From Anaerolineales bacterium (lineage in GTDB: Bacteria; Chloroflexota; Anaerolineae; Anaerolineales; E44-bin32): 64,000 bases of DNA. A model generated the notes under the pieces. The model was not told where the DNA came from and did not search any database. It saw nothing but the letters and a program-made list of their open reading frames with translations. The stretch spans positions 15,766-79,765 of the forward strand of contig DAOULU010000038.1 of NCBI GenBank assembly GCA_034417075.1, read 5' to 3'. Below, one piece after another: positions 9,231 to 27,289 of the stretch; within the stretch, counting starts at the first letter, position 1, and every line of letters starts with the position of its first letter. A program made the translations under genes and the position numbers.

Positions 9231-9632
9231 TTACTTCGCCTCGACTTTGATTTCCTTCGGTCGAGCATCTTCCGACTTCGGGATACGTACGGTCAATATA
9301 CCGTCTTTAACCCTCGCTTCTGCGGCATTCGAATCGAGACTCGTCGGTAACTGCAAGCTGCGGGTAAATCCGCCATGACGCAGTTCACGAAGCAGGTATT
9401 TCCCATTGCCATTGCCGTTCTCGTGCTCAACCTCGCTGCGCAAAGTCACCACGTCATCCAGAACCTCAATCGAGATGTCTTCGGCCTTCAAGCCCGGAAC
9501 GTTCGCGGTAATGACATACCCTTCCTGATCTGCGTGGACATCCACAGGGATCTGGCGGCCACCATTGAAACCGACGGGTTCATAGCGCCGAATTCGTCGA
9601 GCGCTTCTTGGTGCTAAATAATACGTAACCAT
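9231..9632 (-). CDS. Hsp20/alpha-crystallin small heat-shock protein
   Basis: Alpha-crystallin core (VDVHADQEGYVITANVPGLKAEDISIEV ... GILTVRIPK). I chose ATG 9632 (MVTYY) because GGAGG lies 7 nt upstream; the track start at 9671 lacks a Shine-Dalgarno. Confidence 0.85.
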   Translation of the reverse strand: MVTYYLAPRSARRIRRYEPVGFNGGRQIPVDVHADQEGYVITANVPGLKAEDISIEVLDDVVTLRSEVEHENGNGNGKYLLRELRHGGFTRSLQLPTSLDSNAAEARVKDGILTVRIPKSEDARPKEIKVEAK

Positions 9633-9886
9633 CTGAAAACCTCCATTGTTATTCGATGTCTTCGTTTTCACACACCAGAAGCATACCCTCTGATTATCAG
9701 AACGTTATAAATCGGACATTGGAAATCCATTAACAGCCACGTTGATCTCTTGTTAACACTGCGCCAATACTCATCATATATGAACTGCCTACACTAGTAG
9801 AGAAAGCCCCGCAGGTCGAACGAGGTGTTTTACATAGACACATCCTGCGAACGAGGGCAAGAATAATGGAGTAAAGGAATGACGGT

Positions 9887-12493
9887 ATGAATTTAGACAA
9901 ATATACACAAAAAGCACAGGAAGCGATTCTTTCAGCGCAACAAATCGCACAGGACAATCACAACAGTACAATCGAGCCAGTACATCTGCTATTGGCCCTG
10001 GTCAATCAAAGCGACGGTGTTGTTGCGGCGATTGTTACGCGCATCTCCGGCAGTCCGGCGAGGTTGAGAGAGGAACTGCAAACAGACGTCGCGAACCGTC
10101 CCAAAATACACGGCGCAGGAGCCCAACCGGGACTCTCACCGTCCACCTCAGAGCTGCTTTCGCAGGCCGAAAAACAAGCCAGCAAGATGAAAGACGAATA
10201 TGTCTCCACGGAGCACATATTCCTGGCTCTGGCTTCGGGTCCCGAAGCCAAACGGCTGCGCGATTTCGGCATTACCCCGGAAAGCATTCTCCAATCGCTG
10301 ACCGAGATTCGAGGCTCACAGCGCGTGGTCACGCCCAATCCGGAAGACACCTATCAGGCGTTGGAAAAATACGGACGCGACCTGACGCAACTCGCGAGGC
10401 GCGGCAAGTTGGACCCGGTGATTGGTCGCGACGAGGAAATCCGCAGACTCGTGCAGGTCCTGTCCCGCCGCACGAAAAACAACCCGGCGTTGATTGGGGA
10501 GCCAGGCGTCGGTAAAACCGCCATCGTCGAGGGGTTGGCCCAGCGAATCGCTCACGGTGACGTGCCGGAAGGAATTAAGAATCGCCGCATCATTCAGTTG
10601 GACATGGGTGCACTCGTCGCTGGCGCCAAGTATCGCGGTGAATTCGAAGAACGGTTGAAAGCCGTGCTGAAACAAGTCGCCGAGTCCGAAGGCGAGATCA
10701 TCCTCTTCATCGACGAAATGCATACCGTTGTGGGTGCTGGTGCAGCGGAAGGCAGCATGGACGCGAGCAACATGCTCAAACCGATGCTGGCTCGCGGGGA
10801 GTTGCACGCCATCGGCGCCACGACGCTGGACGAATATCGTAAGTACATCGAAAAGGACGCCGCTCTGGAACGCCGTTTTCAACCCGTGTTCGTTTCCGAA
10901 CCCAGCGTTGAGGACACCATCAGCATATTACGCGGGCTGAAGGAACGCTACGAGGTCCATCACGGCGTGCGCATCCAGGACAATGCAGTGATCGCCGCGG
11001 CGACGCTATCCAATCGCTACATCTCGGACCGACACCTGCCCGACAAGGCCATCGACTTGATCGATGAGGCAGCGGCGCGCCTACGCACGGAGATTGATTC
11101 CAAACCACAAGCGCTGGACGAAGTGGATCGCCAGATCATGCAGCTCGAAATCGAACGCGAAGCCTTGAAAAAGGAAAAGGACAAGGCGTCGAGAAAACGA
11201 GAGGAGCGAATCGAAGCGGAACTGGCCGATCTTCGCGAGCAATCTTCCCAGCTTCATGCTCGCTGGCAAACAGAAAAAGAAGCCATCGCCAAGCTTCGAG
11301 AAATAAAGGAACAAATCGAGCAGGCGCGATTGCAAGTCGAACGGGCAGAACGGCATGCCGACCTCGAGCGGGCCGCCCGCTTGCGTTACGGAACGCTGCG
11401 CGAACTGGAAGAAAAGCTCGAAGCGCAAGAGAAGCGCATCAAAGAGTTGCAAACAGAGGGCGCATTGCTCAAGGAGGAAGTCGACGCCGAAGATATCGCC
11501 GCTGTCGTCTCGCGCTGGACTGGAATTCCCGTTTCCAAGCTGCTCGAAGGTGAGATGGAGAAATTACTGCACATGGAAGAGCGTCTGCATCAAGACGTCG
11601 TCGGGCAAGACGAGGCCATCAGCGCCGTTTCCAACGCCGTGCGGCGTTCGCGATCCGGTTTGCAGGATCCCGAGCGGCCCATTGGTTCTTTCATCTTTCT
11701 CGGCCCGACGGGGGTCGGGAAAACGGAACTGGCTCGCGCTTTAGCCAGATTCCTCTTCGACGATCCCAAGGCCATGACTCGCATCGACATGAGCGAATAC
11801 CAGGAAAGACACAGCGTTGCGCGCTTGATCGGCGCACCGCCAGGATACGTCGGCTATGAGGAAGGCGGCCAGCTCACCGAAGCGGTTCGCCGCAGACCTT
11901 TCAGCGTGGTCCTCTTCGATGAAATCGAAAAAGCGCACACGGATGTGTTCAACGTTCTACTGCAGCTGCTCGATGAAGGTCGCTTGACCGACGGACAAGG
12001 TCGCACGGTCGATTTCCGCAACACCGTCGTGATCATGACCAGCAACCTGGGAACTCAACTCTGGAGCGACGAAAGCAAGGCCGAACAGGCTACGCAAAGC
12101 GAAGTACGTGAGCTGCTCACGCACCACTTCCGCCCGGAGTTTCTCAACCGCATCGACGAGATCGTAATCTTCCACAAGTTGAAGAAGGAAGATCTGCGCC
12201 AAATTGTGGACATCCAACTGCGACGGGTTCGCGCCAGATTGGCGGACCAGGGATTCGGCCTGCGCTTGAGCGAGGAAGCGAAAGCCTATCTTGCCGATAT
12301 CGGATACGATCCGGTCTTCGGCGCCCGACCGCTGAAACGCGCCATTCAACGCGAATTGCAGGATCCTTTGGCGCTTAAATTGCTAGCCGGCGATTTCATT
12401 CCCGGAGAGACACTACTGGTGGAACGGGGCAAGGACGGACTGGAATTCTCGGCCGTGAAAGATGCTGAACCCGTCCTCGCCCAAAACGAGTGA
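9887..12493 (+). CDS. clpB: ClpB disaggregase (AAA+ chaperone)
   Basis: 868 aa with a Clp N-domain, two Walker A motifs ([16 protein letters not shown]) and a long coiled-coil middle domain between the AAA modules. Confidence 0.95.
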
Positions 12494-18683: not shown

Positions 18684-19598
18684 ATGAAGGTCATCGAGTG
18701 TTCTGACCTCCGTGAAGAAGACGGAACAATCAGTCTGGCAAACCGGATCAAAGGCACACTTAATTTCGGGCTGAATTGGTACGACGAAATGCTAGCCCAG
18801 GAGGAAATGTGCGCGCGCCTGTCGAAGACGCTCAAGCGCGATCACACCATGATTCGCAATGCGATCATCCCCGGCACGAAACTGCCGGTGCCTATGATTC
18901 TGCTCAGCCCTCAAGGGGTACGCGTCATCGCGACGAGTCGAATACGTGGAAGTTATCGAGCCAAGGGAGATGAATGGCAGAAATTCGATTCGCGCGGTCG
19001 CAAATTCAAGCGTACCCGTCCAAACCCGATGGATGACGTACGTCTCATGGCAGACGTCCTGCTGCGCTCCATTCAAGACCGGGGATACGCGCTTCCCAGC
19101 ATCGAGCCCGTTCTACTCTTTACGGATGTAAATGCTCACATCGATCAGGTTAGTCCCGCTGTGCGCGTCGTTCAAGTCGACGCGATCGATCACTTTGCAG
19201 TGAATTTACTCAAGATCGAACCGATCATGGATCAGGACGACATCCGCGCCGTATCGGACGTCATTCTCCATCCCAAAGGACCTGAAACCGACGAAGTGAC
19301 GGAGCCGGAAAATGGATTGGCGCCTGGGTTGATCAACGAACTCCCTCCATTCACCACCGAGGAAGAGCCACCGCTTGCCTCAGAGGAACTTCCGCCTTTC
19401 AAATTTCCCGACACGGACCCCATGGACTACCCGATGTTCGACCCCAATGCACCGGACGCACCACCTTTAGGCGCACCATTCTACGCCCGTTGGGGTTTCT
19501 CAAGAAACCAATTTGTATTGCTCGCAGTTATGGCGTTTATCGAGCTGCTGATCATAACCGTTCTAGCCGTGATGGTACTTGCCGATATTTCCTTCTGA
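18684..19598 (+). CDS. NERD-like (nuclease-related) domain protein with Pro-rich linker and C-terminal TM anchor
   Basis: The central segment PMILLSPQGVRVIATSRIRGSYRAKGDEW ... NPMDDVRLMADVL ... PVLLFTD resembles the NERD pattern. The C-terminus FVLLAVMAFIELLIITVLAVMVLA is hydrophobic. A TATAAT box lies at 18613-18618 upstream. Confidence 0.5.
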   Translation: MKVIECSDLREEDGTISLANRIKGTLNFGLNWYDEMLAQEEMCARLSKTLKRDHTMIRNAIIPGTKLPVPMILLSPQGVRVIATSRIRGSYRAKGDEWQKFDSRGRKFKRTRPNPMDDVRLMADVLLRSIQDRGYALPSIEPVLLFTDVNAHIDQVSPAVRVVQVDAIDHFAVNLLKIEPIMDQDDIRAVSDVILHPKGPETDEVTEPENGLAPGLINELPPFTTEEEPPLASEELPPFKFPDTDPMDYPMFDPNAPDAPPLGAPFYARWGFSRNQFVLLAVMAFIELLIITVLAVMVLADISF

Positions 19599-20355: not shown

Positions 20356-20995
20356 AGTGGCTGCTTCTCAGCCCGATCTGTTTTATGAATTCGAACTATT
20401 GCAATCCGGTCGTACGATGATCGCCGGCGTGGACGAAGCCGGACGAGGTGCATGGGCGGGTCCCGTTGTCGCAGCAGCCGTCGTGCTTCCTATTCAACGC
20501 TTCGATCTTGCCTACCGGCTCAACGGTGTTCAAGATTCGAAGCAAATGACACCCGAACAACGCGCGATTTGGTTTTCAGGCATCCAGGAGCTTGCAATCG
20601 CTACCGCAGTCGGTTTTGCTACGGCGAAAGAAATCGACGAATTGGGTTTAAGTGTCGCCACCCGGAAAGCGATGCAACGGGCCATCGCACAACTCGGATG
20701 CGAGCCCCAACATTTACTGGTCGATCACATTCGATTACCCGAAGTCCATCTCCCCCAGACTGCCGTCACCCATGGGGATGCCCGCATCCTTTCAATCGCC
20801 GCGGCTTCGGTTATCGCTAAAGTGGCGCGCGATCGAGCGATGATTGCGCTCAATCGCCGTTATCCAGGATATGGATTCCATCAGCACAAGGGATACGGTA
20901 CGGCTGCACACCGCGCAGCCTTACAACAGATGGGGCCCTGTGAGATTCATCGTAAATCGTATGCCCCTGTCACCTCGCTGAATCATAGAAAATAA
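20342..20995 (+). CDS. rnhB: Ribonuclease HII
   Basis: GVDEAGRGAWAGPVVAAAVVL catalytic motif and KDSKQ-like DSKQMT. The gene overlaps the GT2 gene by 14 nt. Confidence 0.9.
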   Translation: MHQIEVAASQPDLFYEFELLQSGRTMIAGVDEAGRGAWAGPVVAAAVVLPIQRFDLAYRLNGVQDSKQMTPEQRAIWFSGIQELAIATAVGFATAKEIDELGLSVATRKAMQRAIAQLGCEPQHLLVDHIRLPEVHLPQTAVTHGDARILSIAAASVIAKVARDRAMIALNRRYPGYGFHQHKGYGTAAHRAALQQMGPCEIHRKSYAPVTSLNHRK

Positions 20996-21050
20996 TAAAG
21001 AAGCGCTACCCCTCGATACCGATGGGTAACGCTTGTCCGAAGAATTACAT

Positions 21051-21103
21051 GGGTGCGGACCAATGGTTATTGAGGCCGACAGCGGATGAATTGGTCCGCA
21101 CCC
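21051..21103. terminator. Bidirectional hairpin between rnhB and the small membrane-protein gene
   Basis: GGGTGCGGACCAAT-25 nt-ATTGGTCCGCACCC (14-bp arms). Confidence 0.6.
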
Positions 21104-21113
21104 GATCAGTAAC

Positions 21114-21284
21114 TTATAGACCCTGCAGATACGTTGCGAGCGCCAGAAGAACGGCGCCGGCCGTCACGATCCAAAAATTGTAGTCCGTGACGATGGAGAG
21201 ATCGACGAATTCCGCAACGACCCCCACGATTACGAGCACGACTGAAATGAGCCAGGTAATTTGCTTCGGAGCACTTAGCTTCAT
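21114..21284 (-). CDS. 56-aa two-helix membrane protein (paralogue S1); not in the ORF track frame list
   Basis: My translation: MKLSAPKQITWLISVVLVIVGVVAEFVDLSIVTDYNFWIVTAGAVLLALATYLQGL. A GGGAGG Shine-Dalgarno lies 6 nt upstream. It shares about half its residues, and the same length, with the ORF at 23164-23334. Confidence 0.7.
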   Translation of the reverse strand: MKLSAPKQITWLISVVLVIVGVVAEFVDLSIVTDYNFWIVTAGAVLLALATYLQGL

Positions 21285-21756
21285 TTTCTGCCTCCCTTTC
21301 TCGGGTCATTGAAATGTATACTAGACGATTGAAAATGTCGGCCTCAAACCGGATAGCCATATTACTGCGGTGCGAAATCGCACAACCTTGCCAGATTATT
21401 CGATCGCTGCCGTTTCATATAAATGTAACACCGAACGTTACTACGAGTTCCTTTGCCGATGTTCAGAATCCGGGGATCTCGTATCTCATGTATCCTGGAT
21501 AGCGACGGAGGAAACTCATGGGACACAATGAAGAACCGAGAATTGCAGATTATGGGACGTGAGCGTCTCTAATGACGAATGCTGACTTTCAAGTTCAAGA
21601 AATGATACAGTTCAATTCCGTCGTACAACGGAGAGGCGACCTACTATATAATAGGAATGAGGACCATTAGCCTAGTTCACCCTTCCGCCAGCATGTTAGA
21701 ATTCTCGTAGCGTGAAAACTCGGATGCGACGGGGAAAATACCATAAGGAGGCTGTC

Positions 21757-22353
21757 GTGGATTCGATTATTAATTTGCTCTTATCGCAGTTAGGCTCTGG
21801 CACAACGAGTCAAATAAGCGAAAAACTCGGGATGGATGATTCCAAAGTTCAGCAAGTGATCGGTATGGCGTTGCCAACACTGATCGGTGCGCTTAACCGC
21901 AACGCATCTTCTTCAAAGAGCGGCGCCGAAGCCTTGACCAATGCCATCCAGAGCGATCATGATGGAAGTATTCTCGATAACATCGCACAGGCTGTTACAA
22001 AGCGCGAGACTGTCGATGACGGTAACGCAATACTAGGCCATGTCTTCGGAGACAAAGGCAGCGGCATCATGGACAGCGTCAGTCGAGCTACGAACATCGA
22101 CAGTGCGCAAGTCGCTCAGATTTTCGCCATGTTGGCTCCCCTCGTACTGGGCGCGTTGGGAAAAATCCAGCGTAATAAAAACCTCGATGCTGATGGGGTG
22201 TCATCTCTTCTCCAGGAAGAACGTCAAACGGTGGAGAAATCATCTTCCGGATTAACCCAGCTTCTGGATATGGACGGCGATGGCGATGTCTCGGACGAGA
22301 TCATTTCGCTCGGAGCGAATCTCTTGGGTGGGCTTTTCGGGGGCAAGAAATAG
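21757..22353 (+). CDS. DUF937-like protein
   Basis: The N-terminal pattern (SQISEKLGMDDSKVQQVIGMALPTLIGALNRNASS), a repeated second half and the tail LLGGLFGGKK are typical of DUF937. I chose GTG 21757 because AAGGAGG lies 6 nt upstream; the track start is 21712. Confidence 0.6.
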   Translation: MDSIINLLLSQLGSGTTSQISEKLGMDDSKVQQVIGMALPTLIGALNRNASSSKSGAEALTNAIQSDHDGSILDNIAQAVTKRETVDDGNAILGHVFGDKGSGIMDSVSRATNIDSAQVAQIFAMLAPLVLGALGKIQRNKNLDADGVSSLLQEERQTVEKSSSGLTQLLDMDGDGDVSDEIISLGANLLGGLFGGKK

Positions 22354-22575
22354 TCTCTGAACCGCTCGGTCGCTCGAGAATCGTACGGCTTGCCTGAGAA
22401 GGGTAAAAAAGTCGTTCCAGGTCAATTTTCGGTAAGAATGACGGTCTCGTAAACTTAATGTATCCCGATGTTCTCCAGTACGGAAAGATCGGGGAACAGA
22501 TCAAGTCGGAATTAAGAAGACGTCGAAAACGTATCTATCTAGTGAACCGAAGAAATAGGAAAAGGAGAATGTGGA

Positions 22576-23010
22576 ATGAGTATTTTCAGCAAGATTTTAG
22601 ACAAGTTGGGATTTGATAAAGAGAAAACCGAATCCGCTGCTAAGGTAGGACCTGCGCCAAAGAAGACGTCAGCTGAAGCGGCTGCCGAGCGACGCGCGCG
22701 AATTGAGCGCATAAAAGCCATGCGCGCCGCAAGGTCAAAAGAAATACCCATGGTCGACGTGATGGCTAAACTCAAGACGATGGCCGACGAGAATCCGCAG
22801 GAGCTCAATTGGAAAACCTCGATAGTCGATCTCTTGAAACTGCTCAATATCGACAGCAGCTACGAGGCTCGTAAAGACCTCGCTGTCGAATTGGGTTGTC
22901 CTGCCGACAAGATGGACGAGTCAGCGGAAATGAATACTTGGCTCCACAAGACCGTACTCGAGAAGATTGCAGAGAACGGCGGCAATATTCCCCTGGATCT
23001 TTTAGATTAG
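22576..23010 (+). CDS. DUF3597-like protein
   Basis: MSIFSKILDKLGF N-terminus, a basic linker and a conserved C-terminal module (WKTSIVDLLKLLNIDSSYEARKDLAVELGC ... NTWLHKTVLEKIAENGG). Confidence 0.6.
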   Translation: MSIFSKILDKLGFDKEKTESAAKVGPAPKKTSAEAAAERRARIERIKAMRAARSKEIPMVDVMAKLKTMADENPQELNWKTSIVDLLKLLNIDSSYEARKDLAVELGCPADKMDESAEMNTWLHKTVLEKIAENGGNIPLDLLD

Positions 23011-23086
23011 GGAAGCCTAGAGGCTAATCCACTACGGGATACGTGCGATACCCTGTATCGTACGAACGCGACTCGAGACCACAATC

Positions 23087-23114
23087 CAACAAGCGCCCTT
23101 TCGGGCGCTTGTTG
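23087..23114. terminator. Bidirectional intrinsic terminator
   Basis: CAACAAGCGCCC-TTTC-GGGCGCTTGTTG lies between convergent genes. Confidence 0.8.
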
Positions 23115-23163
23115 TCTCACAATTGAAATTTCACAGTTTGATTTATCAGGATCTCCGGTGGAA

Positions 23164-23334
23164 TTATAGACCCGGCAGAAACGTACCCAGCACCAGGAGA
23201 ACGAAACCGGCGACGACGAACCAAAACTTGTTCGTCGTAATTACACCGAGAGATACGTAGTTGGCGACGATGCCTAAAACGCCAACCATAAGCGCAATCC
23301 ACCACGTCGGTTGCTTTGGAGCACTTAGCTTCAT
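23164..23334 (-). CDS. 56-aa two-helix membrane protein (paralogue S2)
   Basis: My translation: MKLSAPKQPTWWIALMVGVLGIVANYVSLGVITTNKFWFVVAGFVLLVLGTFLPGL. An AAGGAG Shine-Dalgarno lies upstream. The track ORF at 23117-23305 is in a different, Arg-rich frame. Confidence 0.7.
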   Translation of the reverse strand: MKLSAPKQPTWWIALMVGVLGIVANYVSLGVITTNKFWFVVAGFVLLVLGTFLPGL

Positions 23335-23391
23335 TTTGAGTCTCCTTCTCCTCGAGTTAATGAACGACGGTACTTCAAACGAGGCAGAGCT

Positions 23392-25581
23392 TTAAACCCG
23401 CAGCCAAACCCGAAAGGTCGCTCCCTCGCCGGGAACACCGCTGCTCTCGACCTCGATCATACCCCCATGCTCATCAACGATCTCCTTCGCGATCGCTAAA
23501 CCCAAGCCCGTCCCCGAGACATCAGATTCAAGTCCCACCTTCCCCCTGAAAAAGCGTGTAAATAATTGCCCCTGCTCTTCCTGGCTCAACCCGAATCCAT
23601 TATCTGAAACACAGAAACCTGCATAGCGTTCCGCGGCGTGGATACGCTCTTGCGTGCATACAATCACTTTACCTCCGGAAGGTGTGTAATTTATTGCGTT
23701 CGTGAGGAATATGCCCAATGCTTGCCCAACAAGCTGCGGATCTGCCTCAACCTTTGGCAATCCATTCTGCTTCTCCAAAACCAGCTTTAAGCCGGCCTTT
23801 TCGGCCAGCGGTTGGCGATCGCTGACGTATTGCTCCACAATCTTATTGAGATCCACATGCTTGAAGTGTATGGGCGTGCGTTTTTGATCCAAGCGTGAAA
23901 GCTGCAGCAAACTCTCGATCATGCTCTCCAGACGATCCGTCTCGCGTTCAAGCGTATCTAAATACTCGTCCCATCTCTCGGGTTGTGAGGACAACAGGGT
24001 TAAATAAAGGCGTAGACTGGTGATTGGTGTGCGCAGTTCGTGGGAAACGTTTGCAACGAACTCGTCTTTTACCCGATCAAGGATCTTCAAGCGCGCATTC
24101 GCTTCTTCAAGTTTGCGATTTGCAACTTCCAAACGCGAAGCGTGTCGCTGCATCTCCTCCTCCGCCAACTTTCGTTCGGTAACGTCGCGATCGATACCGT
24201 TGAAACCGATCAAGTTCCCATTTCCATCCAAAATCGGCTCTGCCGTGCTTTCCATGAAACGGATCGACCCATCCTTGTGCAGCCATCGAACGAACACGTC
24301 CGACCACCCTCGTTTCTCCTTCATCGACGTCTGTACCATCTTACGAACGCGTTCGCGATCCTCAGGGTGCATCATCGAGAAGGCAGAAACACCTACGATT
24401 TCAGCGACTTCATATCCCAGCAAATCGTGTATCGCCTTGTTCGAAAATGTGTGACGGCCGTCCGAGTCAATCACCCAAACCCAATCCTTTGTCGATTCGA
24501 CCAGATTGCGATATTTCGCCTCACTTTCGAAGAGCGCATGCTGTGCCTGCACCTCTTCACTGATATCGCGAACGACGATCAGTCGGCCTGTTAATTTTGC
24601 CTGGCGATTTCGGATGGGAGTGATACGAATATCGTGATAGCCAGGTACACCATCTTCTTCAATGCTGACAACTTCATGAAATTCAGTCATGCCCTTATAA
24701 CGCTCGAGTAAATTGGGGAATAACGCAAACACTTCCGTAACCGGCTTTCCAATGACGTCCGAATAGACTATGCCCAGGGTGTCCAAAGCGGCTGGATTAA
24801 CATCAACGACTCTGTTTTGTGCGTCTAAAACAACCACAGAATCGCTCATACTGGTAAAAACCAGATCGCGTGCGATAGGCACAATCTCAAATAGGCCGTA
24901 GCGAAATAGCCCCAATGCAACGATCATGTTGCCAATGCCAAAAGTTATCGGCGTGGTATCCCTATGGATCGAGAATTCAACACCTGCTAAAGTTAATGCC
25001 GTACCGACCAAAGGAATTATGACACCAATCAGAACCGTTAGAATTTGGGTTCGATAGAGTCTCCCTGGGCGCAGAAAACGCTGAAAGAGTTTATAAATTC
25101 CAAAGAGGATTAAGGCATAGGCATAAACTGACATCACCAAAAAGGCTGGAGAAAAAGGATATTTGAGTGCCGAGAAAGGTTCTCCGGACACGATCCAGGT
25201 TCGTGTGTGAATCGACCCATGTAGGTCATCCGTAAAAACCAAGAACAGCCCAACGGTGGATATTACCGCAAGCCATTTCAATACATCTCGAATTTTCGTC
25301 GTATCAGCATCGGAATACTCAAAGGCAAACAGCAAGAACGCCAGGGGCGAGAAAAGCATACCGAAGAATTGTGTGTTATCCCAAAAGATTTTGGCGGGGG
25401 TGCTTGAAGACAGCAGTTCGAATACGTATCCAAGAGTCCATGATGCTTGCAGTAGCGCCGTTATTGAATATGCACGGGCTCCTGCGACCGATCTTCTCTT
25501 CCACGCCAGAATACCAACGCCCGTAGAAATCGCGATCGACAGAAAATAGGGAAGCAGATAGACCGCTGTGCTCCAATCCAT
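23392..25581 (-). CDS. Sensor histidine kinase: N-terminal 7-TM sensor region, two PAS domains, HisKA, HATPase_c
   Basis: About 7 hydrophobic helices in the first 240 aa, PAS-like segments, the H-box SHELRTPITSL, and N/G boxes (NAINYTP, DNGFG, GTGLGLAIAK). Confidence 0.9.
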   Translation of the reverse strand: MDWSTAVYLLPYFLSIAISTGVGILAWKRRSVAGARAYSITALLQASWTLGYVFELLSSSTPAKIFWDNTQFFGMLFSPLAFLLFAFEYSDADTTKIRDVLKWLAVISTVGLFLVFTDDLHGSIHTRTWIVSGEPFSALKYPFSPAFLVMSVYAYALILFGIYKLFQRFLRPGRLYRTQILTVLIGVIIPLVGTALTLAGVEFSIHRDTTPITFGIGNMIVALGLFRYGLFEIVPIARDLVFTSMSDSVVVLDAQNRVVDVNPAALDTLGIVYSDVIGKPVTEVFALFPNLLERYKGMTEFHEVVSIEEDGVPGYHDIRITPIRNRQAKLTGRLIVVRDISEEVQAQHALFESEAKYRNLVESTKDWVWVIDSDGRHTFSNKAIHDLLGYEVAEIVGVSAFSMMHPEDRERVRKMVQTSMKEKRGWSDVFVRWLHKDGSIRFMESTAEPILDGNGNLIGFNGIDRDVTERKLAEEEMQRHASRLEVANRKLEEANARLKILDRVKDEFVANVSHELRTPITSLRLYLTLLSSQPERWDEYLDTLERETDRLESMIESLLQLSRLDQKRTPIHFKHVDLNKIVEQYVSDRQPLAEKAGLKLVLEKQNGLPKVEADPQLVGQALGIFLTNAINYTPSGGKVIVCTQERIHAAERYAGFCVSDNGFGLSQEEQGQLFTRFFRGKVGLESDVSGTGLGLAIAKEIVDEHGGMIEVESSGVPGEGATFRVWLRV

Positions 25582-25906
25582 TCGCGTTGAGGTCCCCTCG
25601 CATTCTCATCTACCCGGTTTATTCATCCCCGGTAGCAGATGTGAAGCCTTGTCGGATGATCCGTCGGGACGCGATGAAGCTACATCGTCTGTCATGTAGG
25701 TCTTGCTATAGAAGGCAAAATCGCGGTTTGTTGGCAAAGAGTCGATGAAAATTTGCATTTGCCCCTATAATCAGATGATACACCACATTTTCAGCAAAAA
25801 ATATCAACTTCGAACGCACTGCGGTAGGGCTACATCATCGCGCTAGTATGAACAGCAAACGTAGGACATTCTCACCCAGAATCAAACGAACGAAATACGA
25901 TGAGAT

Positions 25907-27067
25907 TCACTTCGATTTTCCCCATCCATCACGTAACACACGCCATGCGTTCAATCCTAAGAACTTCTCGATCTCACTCTGAGAATATCCATCAACGACC
26001 AAACGCTGAATTAAGAACTTCATTTCGCTCGCATCCTTCAGATCGTCTGGAGGATCGGTGAAACCGTCAAAATCACTACCGAAGCCAACATGATCCTCCC
26101 CCGCGATCTGATGGAAATGCTGCAGCGTTTGGGATACGAAATCGATTCCACGCAGACGATGATAGGGCGCAAGCCAATAGTTCATGAAGATTACACCGAT
26201 AATGCCTCCCGTTTCAGCGATGGTTCTAACTTCCCAATCCTGTAGATTGTAGGGGCTTGGATTGATTTCGCTGGTACCTATATGCGTAGCCAGGAGCGGC
26301 GCTCGAGCCCCAACGATGTCGTAAATTTGTCTTCGCGCAGTGGGCGTACAATGCGTGACGTCGATCAACATGCCCAACTCAATCATCCGCTCCACGACTC
26401 TCACACCCAATTCACTCAAACCCTTGGTTAGATCGCGTCTTCCCCCGAAACAACCTAACTTCTGCATTGTTTCGGGAAACGGAAAGACTGGCGGCGCGAC
26501 GCCGTTGTCGTAGAAATGAGCCAACGTGAGATACGCCACACCGCGTTCGAAAAGGGTTTCCAGCTTCTGCAGGTCAAGTTCGATGCTGTGCGCGCCTTCC
26601 ACGCAATGAACGTAGGCGATGGGGCCCTTTCCTCCGAGCGAGAGTATCTCATTCAGTTCCTGCACGGAGTGCGCCATCTTTGCATAAGGTTCTCCCGTCT
26701 CCGGATCGACCGCCTCGTTTACCACTTTCTCGATCTCATCCAACAAATTCAACGTGAGTCGAAAATACTGCTGCGATGCAATTTCCTTATAAACAGGTAG
26801 GAAAAAACGCAGCAAGCGCAGCAATCCACAATCATCCAGCAGACCCTTCTCAGGCGCGTAGATCACCGAATTCAACGCCGAAATTCCACCCTCACGCAGT
26901 TTTGAAAAATCCGTACGCATGCTGAAGGGGTCGAATCGAGGCGCAGCCTTCTGATTCAATGTAAAAATCCGCCGCATGATCGACAATTTCAGCGAGGGAT
27001 GCGCGTGCAAATCGAAGATGATCGCAGAATCCTGAATGTGTTTACACATCGTTTGTGCATGGTTCAT
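25907..27067 (-). CDS. Membrane dipeptidase family (peptidase M19)
   Basis: The FDLHAHPS metal-binding start and the HVGFGSDFDGF motif are typical of M19. I chose ATG 27067 (MNHAQ), which has GGAGG upstream. Confidence 0.7.
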   Translation of the reverse strand: MNHAQTMCKHIQDSAIIFDLHAHPSLKLSIMRRIFTLNQKAAPRFDPFSMRTDFSKLREGGISALNSVIYAPEKGLLDDCGLLRLLRFFLPVYKEIASQQYFRLTLNLLDEIEKVVNEAVDPETGEPYAKMAHSVQELNEILSLGGKGPIAYVHCVEGAHSIELDLQKLETLFERGVAYLTLAHFYDNGVAPPVFPFPETMQKLGCFGGRRDLTKGLSELGVRVVERMIELGMLIDVTHCTPTARRQIYDIVGARAPLLATHIGTSEINPSPYNLQDWEVRTIAETGGIIGVIFMNYWLAPYHRLRGIDFVSQTLQHFHQIAGEDHVGFGSDFDGFTDPPDDLKDASEMKFLIQRLVVDGYSQSEIEKFLGLNAWRVLRDGWGKSK

Positions 27068-27289
27068 GATCACACCGCCTCCGAGTCTGTGGCTGAAGAA
27101 GATGTACCGCAATACTCTCCCAGCAAGTACCAGAATATCAAAGAATCTTCAATGAAAACTGAACTCGGTGTATCGTCACTTTAACATCAAAACTTGTTCA
27201 GCACTGACGCAATACTAATCACACCGAACATGTTAAGGACAACCTGTTACAATAAAGACCGATTCCTGAAACAAAATGGAGTGTGTAGA

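Follow-up and report, generated by a model that had tools for sequence, protein, structure and literature searches.

Genes and signals at the locus

Two short open reading frames, each of 171 nt, are found on the minus strand of the window (the whole 64,000-nt stretch of DNA that was analyzed), at positions 21114–21284 (pep1) and 23164–23334 (pep2). Each encodes a two-helix membrane protein of 56 residues that begins with MKLSAPKQ and ends with GL. The two proteins are paralogs, with 30 of 56 residues identical (54%) in a BLASTP comparison (E = 8e-21). An earlier note on this DNA had described both reading frames and had put their identity at about half; the coordinates, lengths and termini were checked and were correct. 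The good Shine-Dalgarno sites that it had credited to both genes were read from the sequence on the minus strand as GGGAGG for pep1 (21291–21296, 6 nt from the ATG) and AAGGAG for pep2 (23342–23347, 7 nt from the ATG). In an intergenic alignment, the GGGAGG of pep1 was invariant in four relatives. It had further been suggested that automated annotation could miss these genes. In fact, both are already included as 56-residue genes in public gene calls, for contig GCA_964497935.1 and also for relatives.

Pep1 and pep2 bracket two plus-strand genes, as had been claimed, and Pfam matches were obtained for both. The first gene (21757–22353) encodes a DUF937 protein of 198 residues, the length that is also given in the gene calls, and has a GTG start after an AAGGAGG. 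Its match to PF06078 scored 130.1 bits against a cut-off of 25.4 bits (window positions 21712–22353). An EF-hand-like loop, DMDGDGDVSDE, is located near the C-terminus of this protein and is conserved in five of the six peptide-linked DUF937 proteins. The second gene (22576–23010) encodes a DUF3597 protein of 144 residues that has no signal peptide; it matched PF12200 with 140.6 bits (cut-off 29.8 bits) and the PDB entry 2gqb with E = 1e-20. Next to pep2, and likewise on the minus strand, is a histidine kinase of 729 residues (23392–25581). In Pfam, this protein comprises a 7TM region, two PAS domains, HisKA and HATPase (HisKA_7TM, PF16927, 170 bits; PAS_4, 97; HisKA, 74; HATPase_c, 73). It is followed along the window by an M19 dipeptidase on the same strand (25907–27112; Peptidase_M19 annotation).

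Pep1 and DUF937 diverge from an intergenic region of 472 nt (21285–21756), which presumably holds promoters. Only short islands of it are conserved between sub-clades, and no conservation as structure was detected there. The spacer between DUF937 and DUF3597 folded no better than shuffled sequences. A search of the whole window with Rfam gave no match at the gathering score, and a search of 20900–23500 at E ≤ 1 gave one match at chance level.

Stable hairpins separate both peptide genes from their convergent neighbors. The first has a 14-bp stem and lies between RNase HII and pep1 (21051–21103; −28.1 kcal/mol, z = −4.9); the second has a perfect 12-bp stem with a tetraloop and lies between DUF3597 and pep2 (23087–23114; z = −4.3). 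Both had been taken for strong terminators of the peptide genes. Their stability was upheld, but neither has a canonical U-tract, both were absent from a terminator scan that required a T-run, and the second is not specific to the peptide. The hairpin at 21051–21103 is probably a bidirectional terminator. That at 23087–23114 is kept 3′ of DUF3597 in the relatives L002 and L006, both of which lack pep2, and because of this conservation it is assigned as a putative shared terminator rather than one dedicated to pep2.

A family of 56-residue hairpin proteins

Differences between the peptide genes and their orthologs were dominated by changes at third codon positions. The dN/dS values were 0.05–0.25 for pep1 and 0.03 for pep2 and thus not near 1; the pep2 ortholog comparison featured 10 synonymous changes and 1 non-synonymous change. 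Given these values, the predominance of third-position changes and the existence of more than 1,000 clusters of equal length (see below), the reading frames are not products of chance. As judged from sequence comparison, pep1 and pep2 are protein-coding genes under purifying selection.

Homology searches with the peptides established that a family exists. Matches were found in 1,118 cluster representatives at E ≤ 1e-3 and in 244 at E ≤ 1e-10, and a second family search returned 1,055 clusters at E ≤ 1e-5. Nearly all members are about 56 residues long, and most are from Chloroflexota; their genes are chromosomal, keep their synteny and show strong conservation across phyla. Pfam and NCBIfam were searched with pep1, pep2 and 97 family members, and only scattered sub-threshold matches were obtained. 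A literature search with the N-terminal motif of the family found no description of it. On the evidence of these searches, the family is widespread, undescribed and represented by no model in Pfam or NCBIfam. With more than 1,000 clusters, a fixed length, an invariant proline and conserved termini, it clearly qualifies as a candidate new family for curation. Pep1 is its resident copy at this locus.

The invariant proline is Pro6. The N-terminal M-K-L-S-A-P-K and the C-terminal K-G-L are conserved, and the hydrophobic fraction in the family exceeds 0.9 over positions 11–24 and 37–50. AlphaFold2 predicted a helical hairpin for the peptide, with helices at about 5–26 and 36–52 and a pLDDT of 82; when this model was compared to the PDB using Foldseek, the best match was no better than E = 3.4. 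Selection, family membership and the predicted hairpin bear out the earlier description of the peptides as real, paralogous two-helix membrane proteins. Basic residues are conserved at each end of the hairpin; the loop between the helices carries almost no charge. Judged only from this charge distribution, and by the positive-inside rule, both ends probably face the cytoplasm.

By residue identity, pep1 and pep2 are not each other's closest relatives and did not arise by a recent local duplication, since each has more residues in common with family members of other genomes (33–36 of 56 identical) than with its sibling (30 of 56). Synonymous sites between the two are near saturation (dS 0.88).

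Linkage of the two copies to their neighbors

The start of pep2 lies 57 nt downstream of the kinase stop, confirming the distance given in the earlier note, and this gap contains no hairpin (z = +0.9). The order is kept, on the same strand and with spacings of 57–71 nt, in the relatives L010–L012 and in the P0004 contig. Pep2 is probably co-transcribed with the kinase, as far as this arrangement can indicate. Both genes belong to a variable block of approximately 4.1 kb that also includes the M19 dipeptidase at its far end (23115–27240; the boundaries, taken from synteny and boundary alignment, are approximate). The block is present in the window and in L010–L012; L002 and L006 have about 125 nt in its place. 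Alignment of the indel boundaries revealed no flanking or direct repeats and no remnant of pep2. L002, L003, L006 and L007 lack the dipeptidase as well as the kinase and pep2 but retain DUF937 and DUF3597; from synteny, it is therefore the M19–kinase–pep2 block that varies and not the bracketed pair.

The coupling of pep2 to the kinase could reflect a dedicated regulatory role, in which the small protein would bind the transmembrane domain of the 7TM-PAS kinase and tune its activity in the manner of MgrB or SafA. The close, co-directional spacing without an intervening terminator, the joint gain or loss of the two genes and the very strong constraint on pep2 are all consistent with such a role, which we nevertheless regard as doubtful. 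In the survey of family loci, the window's clade was the only one with a HisKA_7TM kinase next to the peptide, so that the family-wide association with 7TM kinases contemplated in the earlier note was not found. Kinases or other signaling proteins stood beside family members at about 8 of 73 loci, which is roughly background, and no response regulator is located near pep2.

In every relative, pep1 has RNase HII on one side and DUF937 on the other and, by this synteny, is the resident copy at the locus. Other loci of the family were collected by a genome scan with a 23-sequence alignment. The trio of peptide, DUF937 and DUF3597 is found again, with its genes rearranged, in the distant Anaerolineales genome L032, and in L054 and L032 DUF937 shares the strand of the peptide and lies within 80 nt of it. 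The comparison of these loci supports a link between pep1 and DUF937/DUF3597 that exceeds simple inheritance. Linked genes occur in differing orders across L032, L054, L076 and L066. The distance to the peptide was at most 1.5 kb for all five DUF937 matches and for six of the seven strong DUF4332 matches; the remaining one was 3.4 kb away, and one weak DUF4332 match (E = 5e-4) was left out of the count. This zone makes up 19.5% of the surveyed bases, for a P of about 3e-4 for DUF937 and likewise for DUF4332, or about 1e-3 if the window's clade is counted once. Among 156 families, the most recurrent immediate neighbors were DUF937 and DUF4332, which were tied.

The link appears to be a facultative one. 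Any of the partner families was found near the peptide at about 10 of 73 species loci, and about 86% of the species-level family loci had none of these partners. In a reciprocal scan seeded with DUF937 (the best 80 relatives, in metagenomes), the peptide was nearby in only 3 of 80 cases, all from the window's clade, which makes a general, direct physical partnership of the peptide with DUF937 unlikely. A BON-LysM neighbor was located beside 17 of the 80 DUF937 relatives; no similarity was detected between DUF3597 and the BON-LysM proteins. Other small proteins with two transmembrane helices were encountered beside DUF937 in isolated cases only and are no general feature. The co-occurrence with DUF937 and DUF3597 raised in the earlier note thus stood in part: it recurs in a few distant lineages, but it is found at a minority of the loci, whether these are counted from the peptide or from DUF937.

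These counts also bear on the proposal that pep1, DUF937, DUF3597 and pep2 are a single membrane-associated module of four genes, with the peptides as membrane subunits. The bracket of pep2 and pep1 around DUF3597 and DUF937 is kept in several related genomes, down to 73–80% identity of pep2, and the reordered trio in L032 likewise speaks for the proposal, which is distinctly improbable all the same. Sister genomes hold pep1, DUF937 and DUF3597 without pep2 and without the kinase, and pep2 tracks the kinase and the dipeptidase instead. Most family members stand alone, the peptide is missing from the vicinity of most DUF937 relatives (which have a BON-LysM neighbor instead in the 17 cases above), and neither DUF937 nor DUF3597 is present at L086, the one further locus where two copies of the family are found within 10 kb.

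A role of the peptides as membrane-damaging toxins or holins, of the type I toxin or phage-lysis kind, is very unlikely. They are small and hydrophobic, and pep1 gave a weak sub-threshold match to Phage_holin_5_2 (E = 0.048; 14 bits against a cut-off of 29 bits), but there was no PHROG or PADLOC match, no member was found in phage or plasmid collections, no phage or lysis genes are nearby, and the chromosomal location, synteny and strong conservation across phyla of the genes also count against such a role. Hardly any credence is given to the suggestion that a duplication-mediated insertion of the 1.9-kb DUF937/DUF3597 interval left the two copies as its footprint. In its favor is only the symmetry of the arrangement (same length, same strand, flanking the pair); against it are the presence of DUF937 and DUF3597 in relatives without pep2, the divergence of the paralogs (54% identity, dS 0.88, each nearer to family members of other genomes) and an indel that coincides with the M19–kinase–pep2 block, with neither repeats nor a remnant at its boundaries.

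Interpretation and comparison with known systems

The explanation that we favor, with moderate confidence, is that pep1 and pep2 are two genuine members of a widespread family of 56-residue hairpin proteins, that pep1 is loosely linked to DUF937/DUF3597 and pep2 to the kinase, and that both are accessory membrane proteins; that pep2 serves the kinase is our best guess. Pep2 would be a small membrane accessory or modulator of the kinase, or else a membrane effector that is co-regulated with it. Pep1 would be a small membrane protein that stands alone; its gene would lie facultatively near, and probably be co-regulated with, genes for cytoplasmic proteins of stress- or ion-related appearance. 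The partners of pep1-type peptides would include DUF937, with its EF-hand-like loop, and DUF3597; DUF4332 and LysM or BON-LysM (Kbp-like) proteins would join them in other lineages. The symmetric bracketing would then be a by-product of two separate linkages and not a functional unit. In other respects the locus is ordinary and shows no novel mechanism, RNA or mobile element.

Under-annotation is common among small membrane proteins, and several of these have proved to regulate kinases, transporters or stress responses. Two testable leads are offered by the present family, namely the kinase-linked pep2 and the recurrent DUF937/DUF4332/DUF3597/LysM neighborhood, whose proteins are themselves of unknown function. 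A broader reading, which we consider unlikely, is that the MKLSAPK...KGL family is the membrane part of an unrecognized, facultative ion- or envelope-stress set (DUF937 with its EF-hand-like loop, a Kbp-like BON-LysM or DUF3597 protein, and DUF4332). The family would then be the counterpart in Chloroflexota of Pmp3/YqaE next to Kbp, and in the window's clade pep2, a diverged paralog, would have been recruited as a dedicated transmembrane accessory of the 7TM-PAS kinase. If this were true, pep2 would link that set to two-component signaling.

Pmp3/YqaE (UPF0057), whose members are small hydrophobic stress proteins with two transmembrane helices, resembles the family in size (52 versus 56 residues) and in its hairpin of two helices. 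The gene yqaE of E. coli is located 83 nt upstream of kbp on the same strand; in parallel with this, the peptide is beside LysM or BON-LysM genes in L076, L054 and L066. Kbp is a K+-binding BON-LysM protein (PMC5681659). The LysM link is found at only 3 of 73 peptide loci, and the motifs of Pmp3/YqaE differ from those of the family described here. Homology to Pmp3/YqaE was considered and rejected: the hhalign probability against E. coli YqaE was 0.7%, and PF01679 was matched by 0 of 97 members at E ≤ 0.01. No Pmp3 homolog was present in any family locus that was fetched.

DUF1328/YtjA, GlsB/YeaQ/YmgE, CrgA, DUF3040 and DUF7470 are similar in being short, mostly hydrophobic proteins whose genes usually stand alone. 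Weak, composition-driven Pfam matches were obtained to CrgA (E = 0.03), DUF3040 (E = 0.02) and DUF7470 (E = 0.015). Identity with these three was rejected; the matches scored about 15 bits against cut-offs of 25–27 bits, and none recurred across the 97 members. By these comparisons, the family is distinct from the small hairpin membrane families considered.

MgrB and SafA are small proteins that bind the transmembrane domain of PhoQ and tune its activity. Pep2 differs from them in that it has no homology to them and has two transmembrane helices rather than one. In its own clade, but not across the family, it is like them a small membrane protein that shows genetic coupling to a sensor histidine kinase.

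The peptide genes and their family

The arrangement described in the earlier note was confirmed, and its interpretation proved partly right. Two minus-strand ORFs of 171 nt, pep1 (21114-21284) and pep2 (23164-23334), flank genes whose products match DUF937 (130 bits) and DUF3597 (141 bits), and a 729-aa kinase (7TM, two PAS, HisKA and HATPase domains) is located 57 nt upstream of pep2 on the same strand. Each ORF encodes a 56-aa peptide with the N-terminus MKLSAPKQ and the C-terminus GL; the two align without gaps at 54% identity (BLASTP E = 8e-21). Shine-Dalgarno sequences precede both starts (GGGAGG at 6 nt for pep1, AAGGAG at 7 nt for pep2). The worry that annotation could miss these genes was not borne out, because the public annotation of the window's contig, CAZCFK010000013.1 (GCA_964497935.1), calls both as 56-aa genes. 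Differences between orthologues concentrate at third codon positions (e.g. 6/2/28 by codon position), and dN/dS (Nei-Gojobori) was 0.05-0.25 for pep1 and 0.03 for pep2 (10 synonymous changes and 1 non-synonymous). Because of the public gene calls, the third-position changes and the low dN/dS, both ORFs are judged to be real genes.

Homologues, which the earlier note had proposed to seek, are numerous. Word-indexed searches with the single peptides recovered no more than 6 and 17 relatives. When a profile was run exhaustively against 1.84 billion cluster representatives, 1,118 matched at E <= 1e-3, and 244 did so at E <= 1e-10. Almost every one is 56-58 aa long; those above this length appear to result from mis-called starts. 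In a 90%-identity collection, the profile matched 1,055 clusters (E <= 1e-5). A Pfam domain was absent from all of them, and nearly all were unnamed or "hypothetical" (a few carried inconsistent automatic JGI labels); the organism, where named in a few cases, was Chloroflexota, Anaerolineaceae or Anaerolineales. No consistent Pfam-A or NCBIfam match was found across 97 diverse members, no match to the family in PHROGs, PADLOC or the plasmid and phage collections, and no paper in a literature search for the N-terminal motif. A one-genome-per-species scan with the pattern M[KR]L[SN]APKQxT yielded 73 loci, 47 of them labelled as Chloroflexota lineages (by record titles); the remainder include Acidobacteriota, Gemmatimonadota, Erysipelotrichaceae, Clostridiales, KSB1, Calditrichia, Cytophagia, deltaproteobacterial lineages and Actinomycetales.

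The family consensus is MKLSAPKxxTWxIAVxLxxLGxLGxxxxIPxxxxxxFWLVxxGFVLLALxTxxKGL, in which Pro6 is invariant. In agreement with the two-helix membrane peptide first proposed, AlphaFold2 (113 sequences) modeled a hairpin of two helices (5-26 and 36-52) with a short one between them at 31-34; mean pLDDT was 82. Basic residues cluster at positions 2, 7 and 54, and the loop (25-36) is almost devoid of charge; by the positive-inside rule, we infer from the basic residues that both ends are cytoplasmic. The best Foldseek match of the hairpin in the PDB had E = 3.4, which is unsurprising for so generic a fold. The family comprises undescribed, widespread 56-aa membrane hairpins; it deserves curation and yields two testable leads, with no mechanistic surprise.

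Gene neighbours across the family

The earlier note had suggested a four-gene membrane module. At the 73 species loci, every ORF lying up to 6 kb from the peptide was clustered with no prior assumptions, and HMMs were then applied to the full loci. DUF937 was found at five loci, all within 1.4 kb of the peptide: two of the window's clade, L032 (63 nt downstream, same strand), L054 (76 nt upstream, same strand) and L076. DUF3597 was found at three (the same two of the window's clade and L032, in the order DUF3597(-) ... pep(+) DUF937(+)), and DUF4332 at seven, six within 600 nt. LysM or BON-LysM genes lie within 1.3 kb of the peptide at L054, L066 and L076. The order at L054, on one strand, is DUF937 > pep > cupin > DUF4332 > LysM; at L076 it is pep <> DUF4332, BON-LysM, DUF937, M48.

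The zone within 1.5 kb of the peptide makes up 19.5% of the surveyed bases and holds 5/5 DUF937 matches and 6/7 strong DUF4332 matches (one further weak match was left out). The chance of such clustering is ~3e-4 for each family, or ~1e-3 with the window's clade entered as a single case. Among 136 immediate neighbours, a Pfam census distinguished 156 families, with Amidohydro_1, DUF4332 and DUF937 tied for first at four occurrences each. Any partner family was present at ~10 of the 73 loci; the remaining loci carry stand-alone genes in unrelated contexts. In a reciprocal scan of the 80 best metagenomic DUF937 relatives (L097-L176), the peptide was nearby in three, all of the window's own clade; BON-LysM was a neighbour in 17 and DUF3597 in six. 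The pairing of DUF937 with a Kbp-like protein appears far closer than its pairing with the peptide. The proposed link to DUF937 and DUF3597 therefore stands in part: linkage of pep1 to DUF937, DUF3597, DUF4332 and LysM genes is real and recurrent, and it is facultative, given the ~10/73 loci and the 3/80 reciprocal cases. This pattern is more easily explained by co-located, co-regulated genes than by an obligate complex.

Synteny of the block containing pep2

Close relatives sort into two synteny types. Type A (the window, L010-L012, and contigs of P0003 and P0004) has the order DUF211, M19 peptidase, kinase, pep2 / DUF3597, DUF937 / pep1 / RNase HII. Type B (L002, L003, L006, L007) has DUF211 / DUF3597, DUF937 / pep1 / RNase HII, without M19, kinase and pep2. 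The reading of the 1.9 kb between the peptide genes as an insertion fails here, since type B retains DUF937 and DUF3597. In the boundary alignment, ~4.1 kb of type A stand against ~125 nt of type B, so what varies is the M19-kinase-pep2 unit, not the DUF937/DUF3597 interval; no flanking repeats or pep2 remnant were found at the block boundaries in this alignment. With pep1 flanked by DUF937 and RNase HII in both types, it is the resident copy, and pep2 belongs to the kinase-containing block.

Both peptide genes had been said to end at strong hairpin terminators. The hairpins are real (21051-21103, 14-bp stem, -28 kcal/mol, z -4.9; 23087-23114, 12-bp stem and tetraloop, z -4.3) and each sits between convergent genes; neither has a canonical U-tract or was listed by the terminator scan. 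The hairpin downstream of DUF3597 (23087-23114) is really the terminator of that gene, since it is kept in types A and B, and is shared by pep2 through convergent transcription.

The kinase-pep2 gap is unstructured (z +0.9) and its length is conserved at 57-71 nt, so co-transcription of the two is likely. A wider association of the family with 7TM kinases did not emerge: HisKA_7TM was near the peptide in the window's clade alone, and signalling proteins, kinases included, adjoin family members at ~8/73 loci, about background. The favoured guess at mechanism, though rather doubtful, is that both peptides would be membrane accessories facing the cytoplasm and that pep2 would serve the kinase.

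Two family copies within 10 kb occurred only in the window's clade and at L086, a Chloroflexota MAG, where divergent copies (9613-9783, minus; 10001-10165, plus) lie beside rpoC; no DUF937, DUF3597 or kinase was found near that pair. A recent local duplication of pep1 and pep2 is unsupported, as dS between them is 0.88 (synonymous sites near saturation; dN 0.36) and each shares more identical residues with consensus-like members of other genomes (33-36/56) than with its partner copy (30/56); from these comparisons, they are old paralogues. No evidence was found at the locus for a mobile element, RNA element, toxin or defence system.

Partner proteins and the yqaE-kbp comparison

No partner protein carries a signal peptide. 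The DUF937 protein carries an EF-hand-like loop, DMDGDGDVSDE, near its C-terminus (window 22269-22301), followed by a Gly-rich tail. The loop is kept in 5/6 peptide-linked DUF937 proteins (as LLDxDGDGSxLD in L054, L076 and L014) and is missing in L032. In Bacillus phage endolysins, DUF3597 is catalogued as an uncharacterised domain that putatively binds the cell wall (PMC11674121), and it also appears in a list of EcfG general-stress genes from Sphingomonas melonis (PMC6599016).

Several other genes were observed. The LysM proteins of the peptide/DUF4332 clusters at L054 (11364-11822) and L066 (8154-8765) combine a long, highly charged Ala/Glu/Lys-rich region, probably a coiled-coil, with a C-terminal LysM. 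In L032, a Gp49 (HigB-like) gene and an HTH gene (10984-11650) probably form a toxin-antitoxin module; they lie directly 3' of the peptide-DUF937 pair. At two loci of unrelated source (an Acidobacteriota MAG; contigs of freshwater metagenomes), the peptide gene has a divergent neighbour at ~200 nt that encodes a Ser/Thr protein kinase of ~1,000 aa (L031, 2490-5468; L018, 2812-5808, with an RskA_C anti-sigma-like domain). In the window, a NERD (nuclease-related) domain protein (18684-19598) has a Pro-rich acidic linker and, at the C-terminus, a hydrophobic helix, which suggests membrane anchoring. A GlsB/YeaQ/YmgE-like protein 580 nt from a DUF937 gene (L166, 446-709) is a single case of a further small stress-type membrane protein in such a neighbourhood.

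E. coli Kbp, which has the BON-LysM architecture, binds K+ (PMC5681659). The LysM proteins of L054 and L066, being without signal peptides, appear cytoplasmic, as is Kbp. In E. coli K-12 (NC_000913.3, 2796337-2797028), yqaE and kbp share a strand, with yqaE 83 nt upstream. Although Pmp3/YqaE and the 56-aa family are unrelated (hhalign probability 0.7%), yqaE encodes a 52-aa two-TM peptide of the Pmp3 family beside a BON-LysM gene, and its resemblance to the peptide/LysM neighbourhoods is, as an analogy, suggestive.
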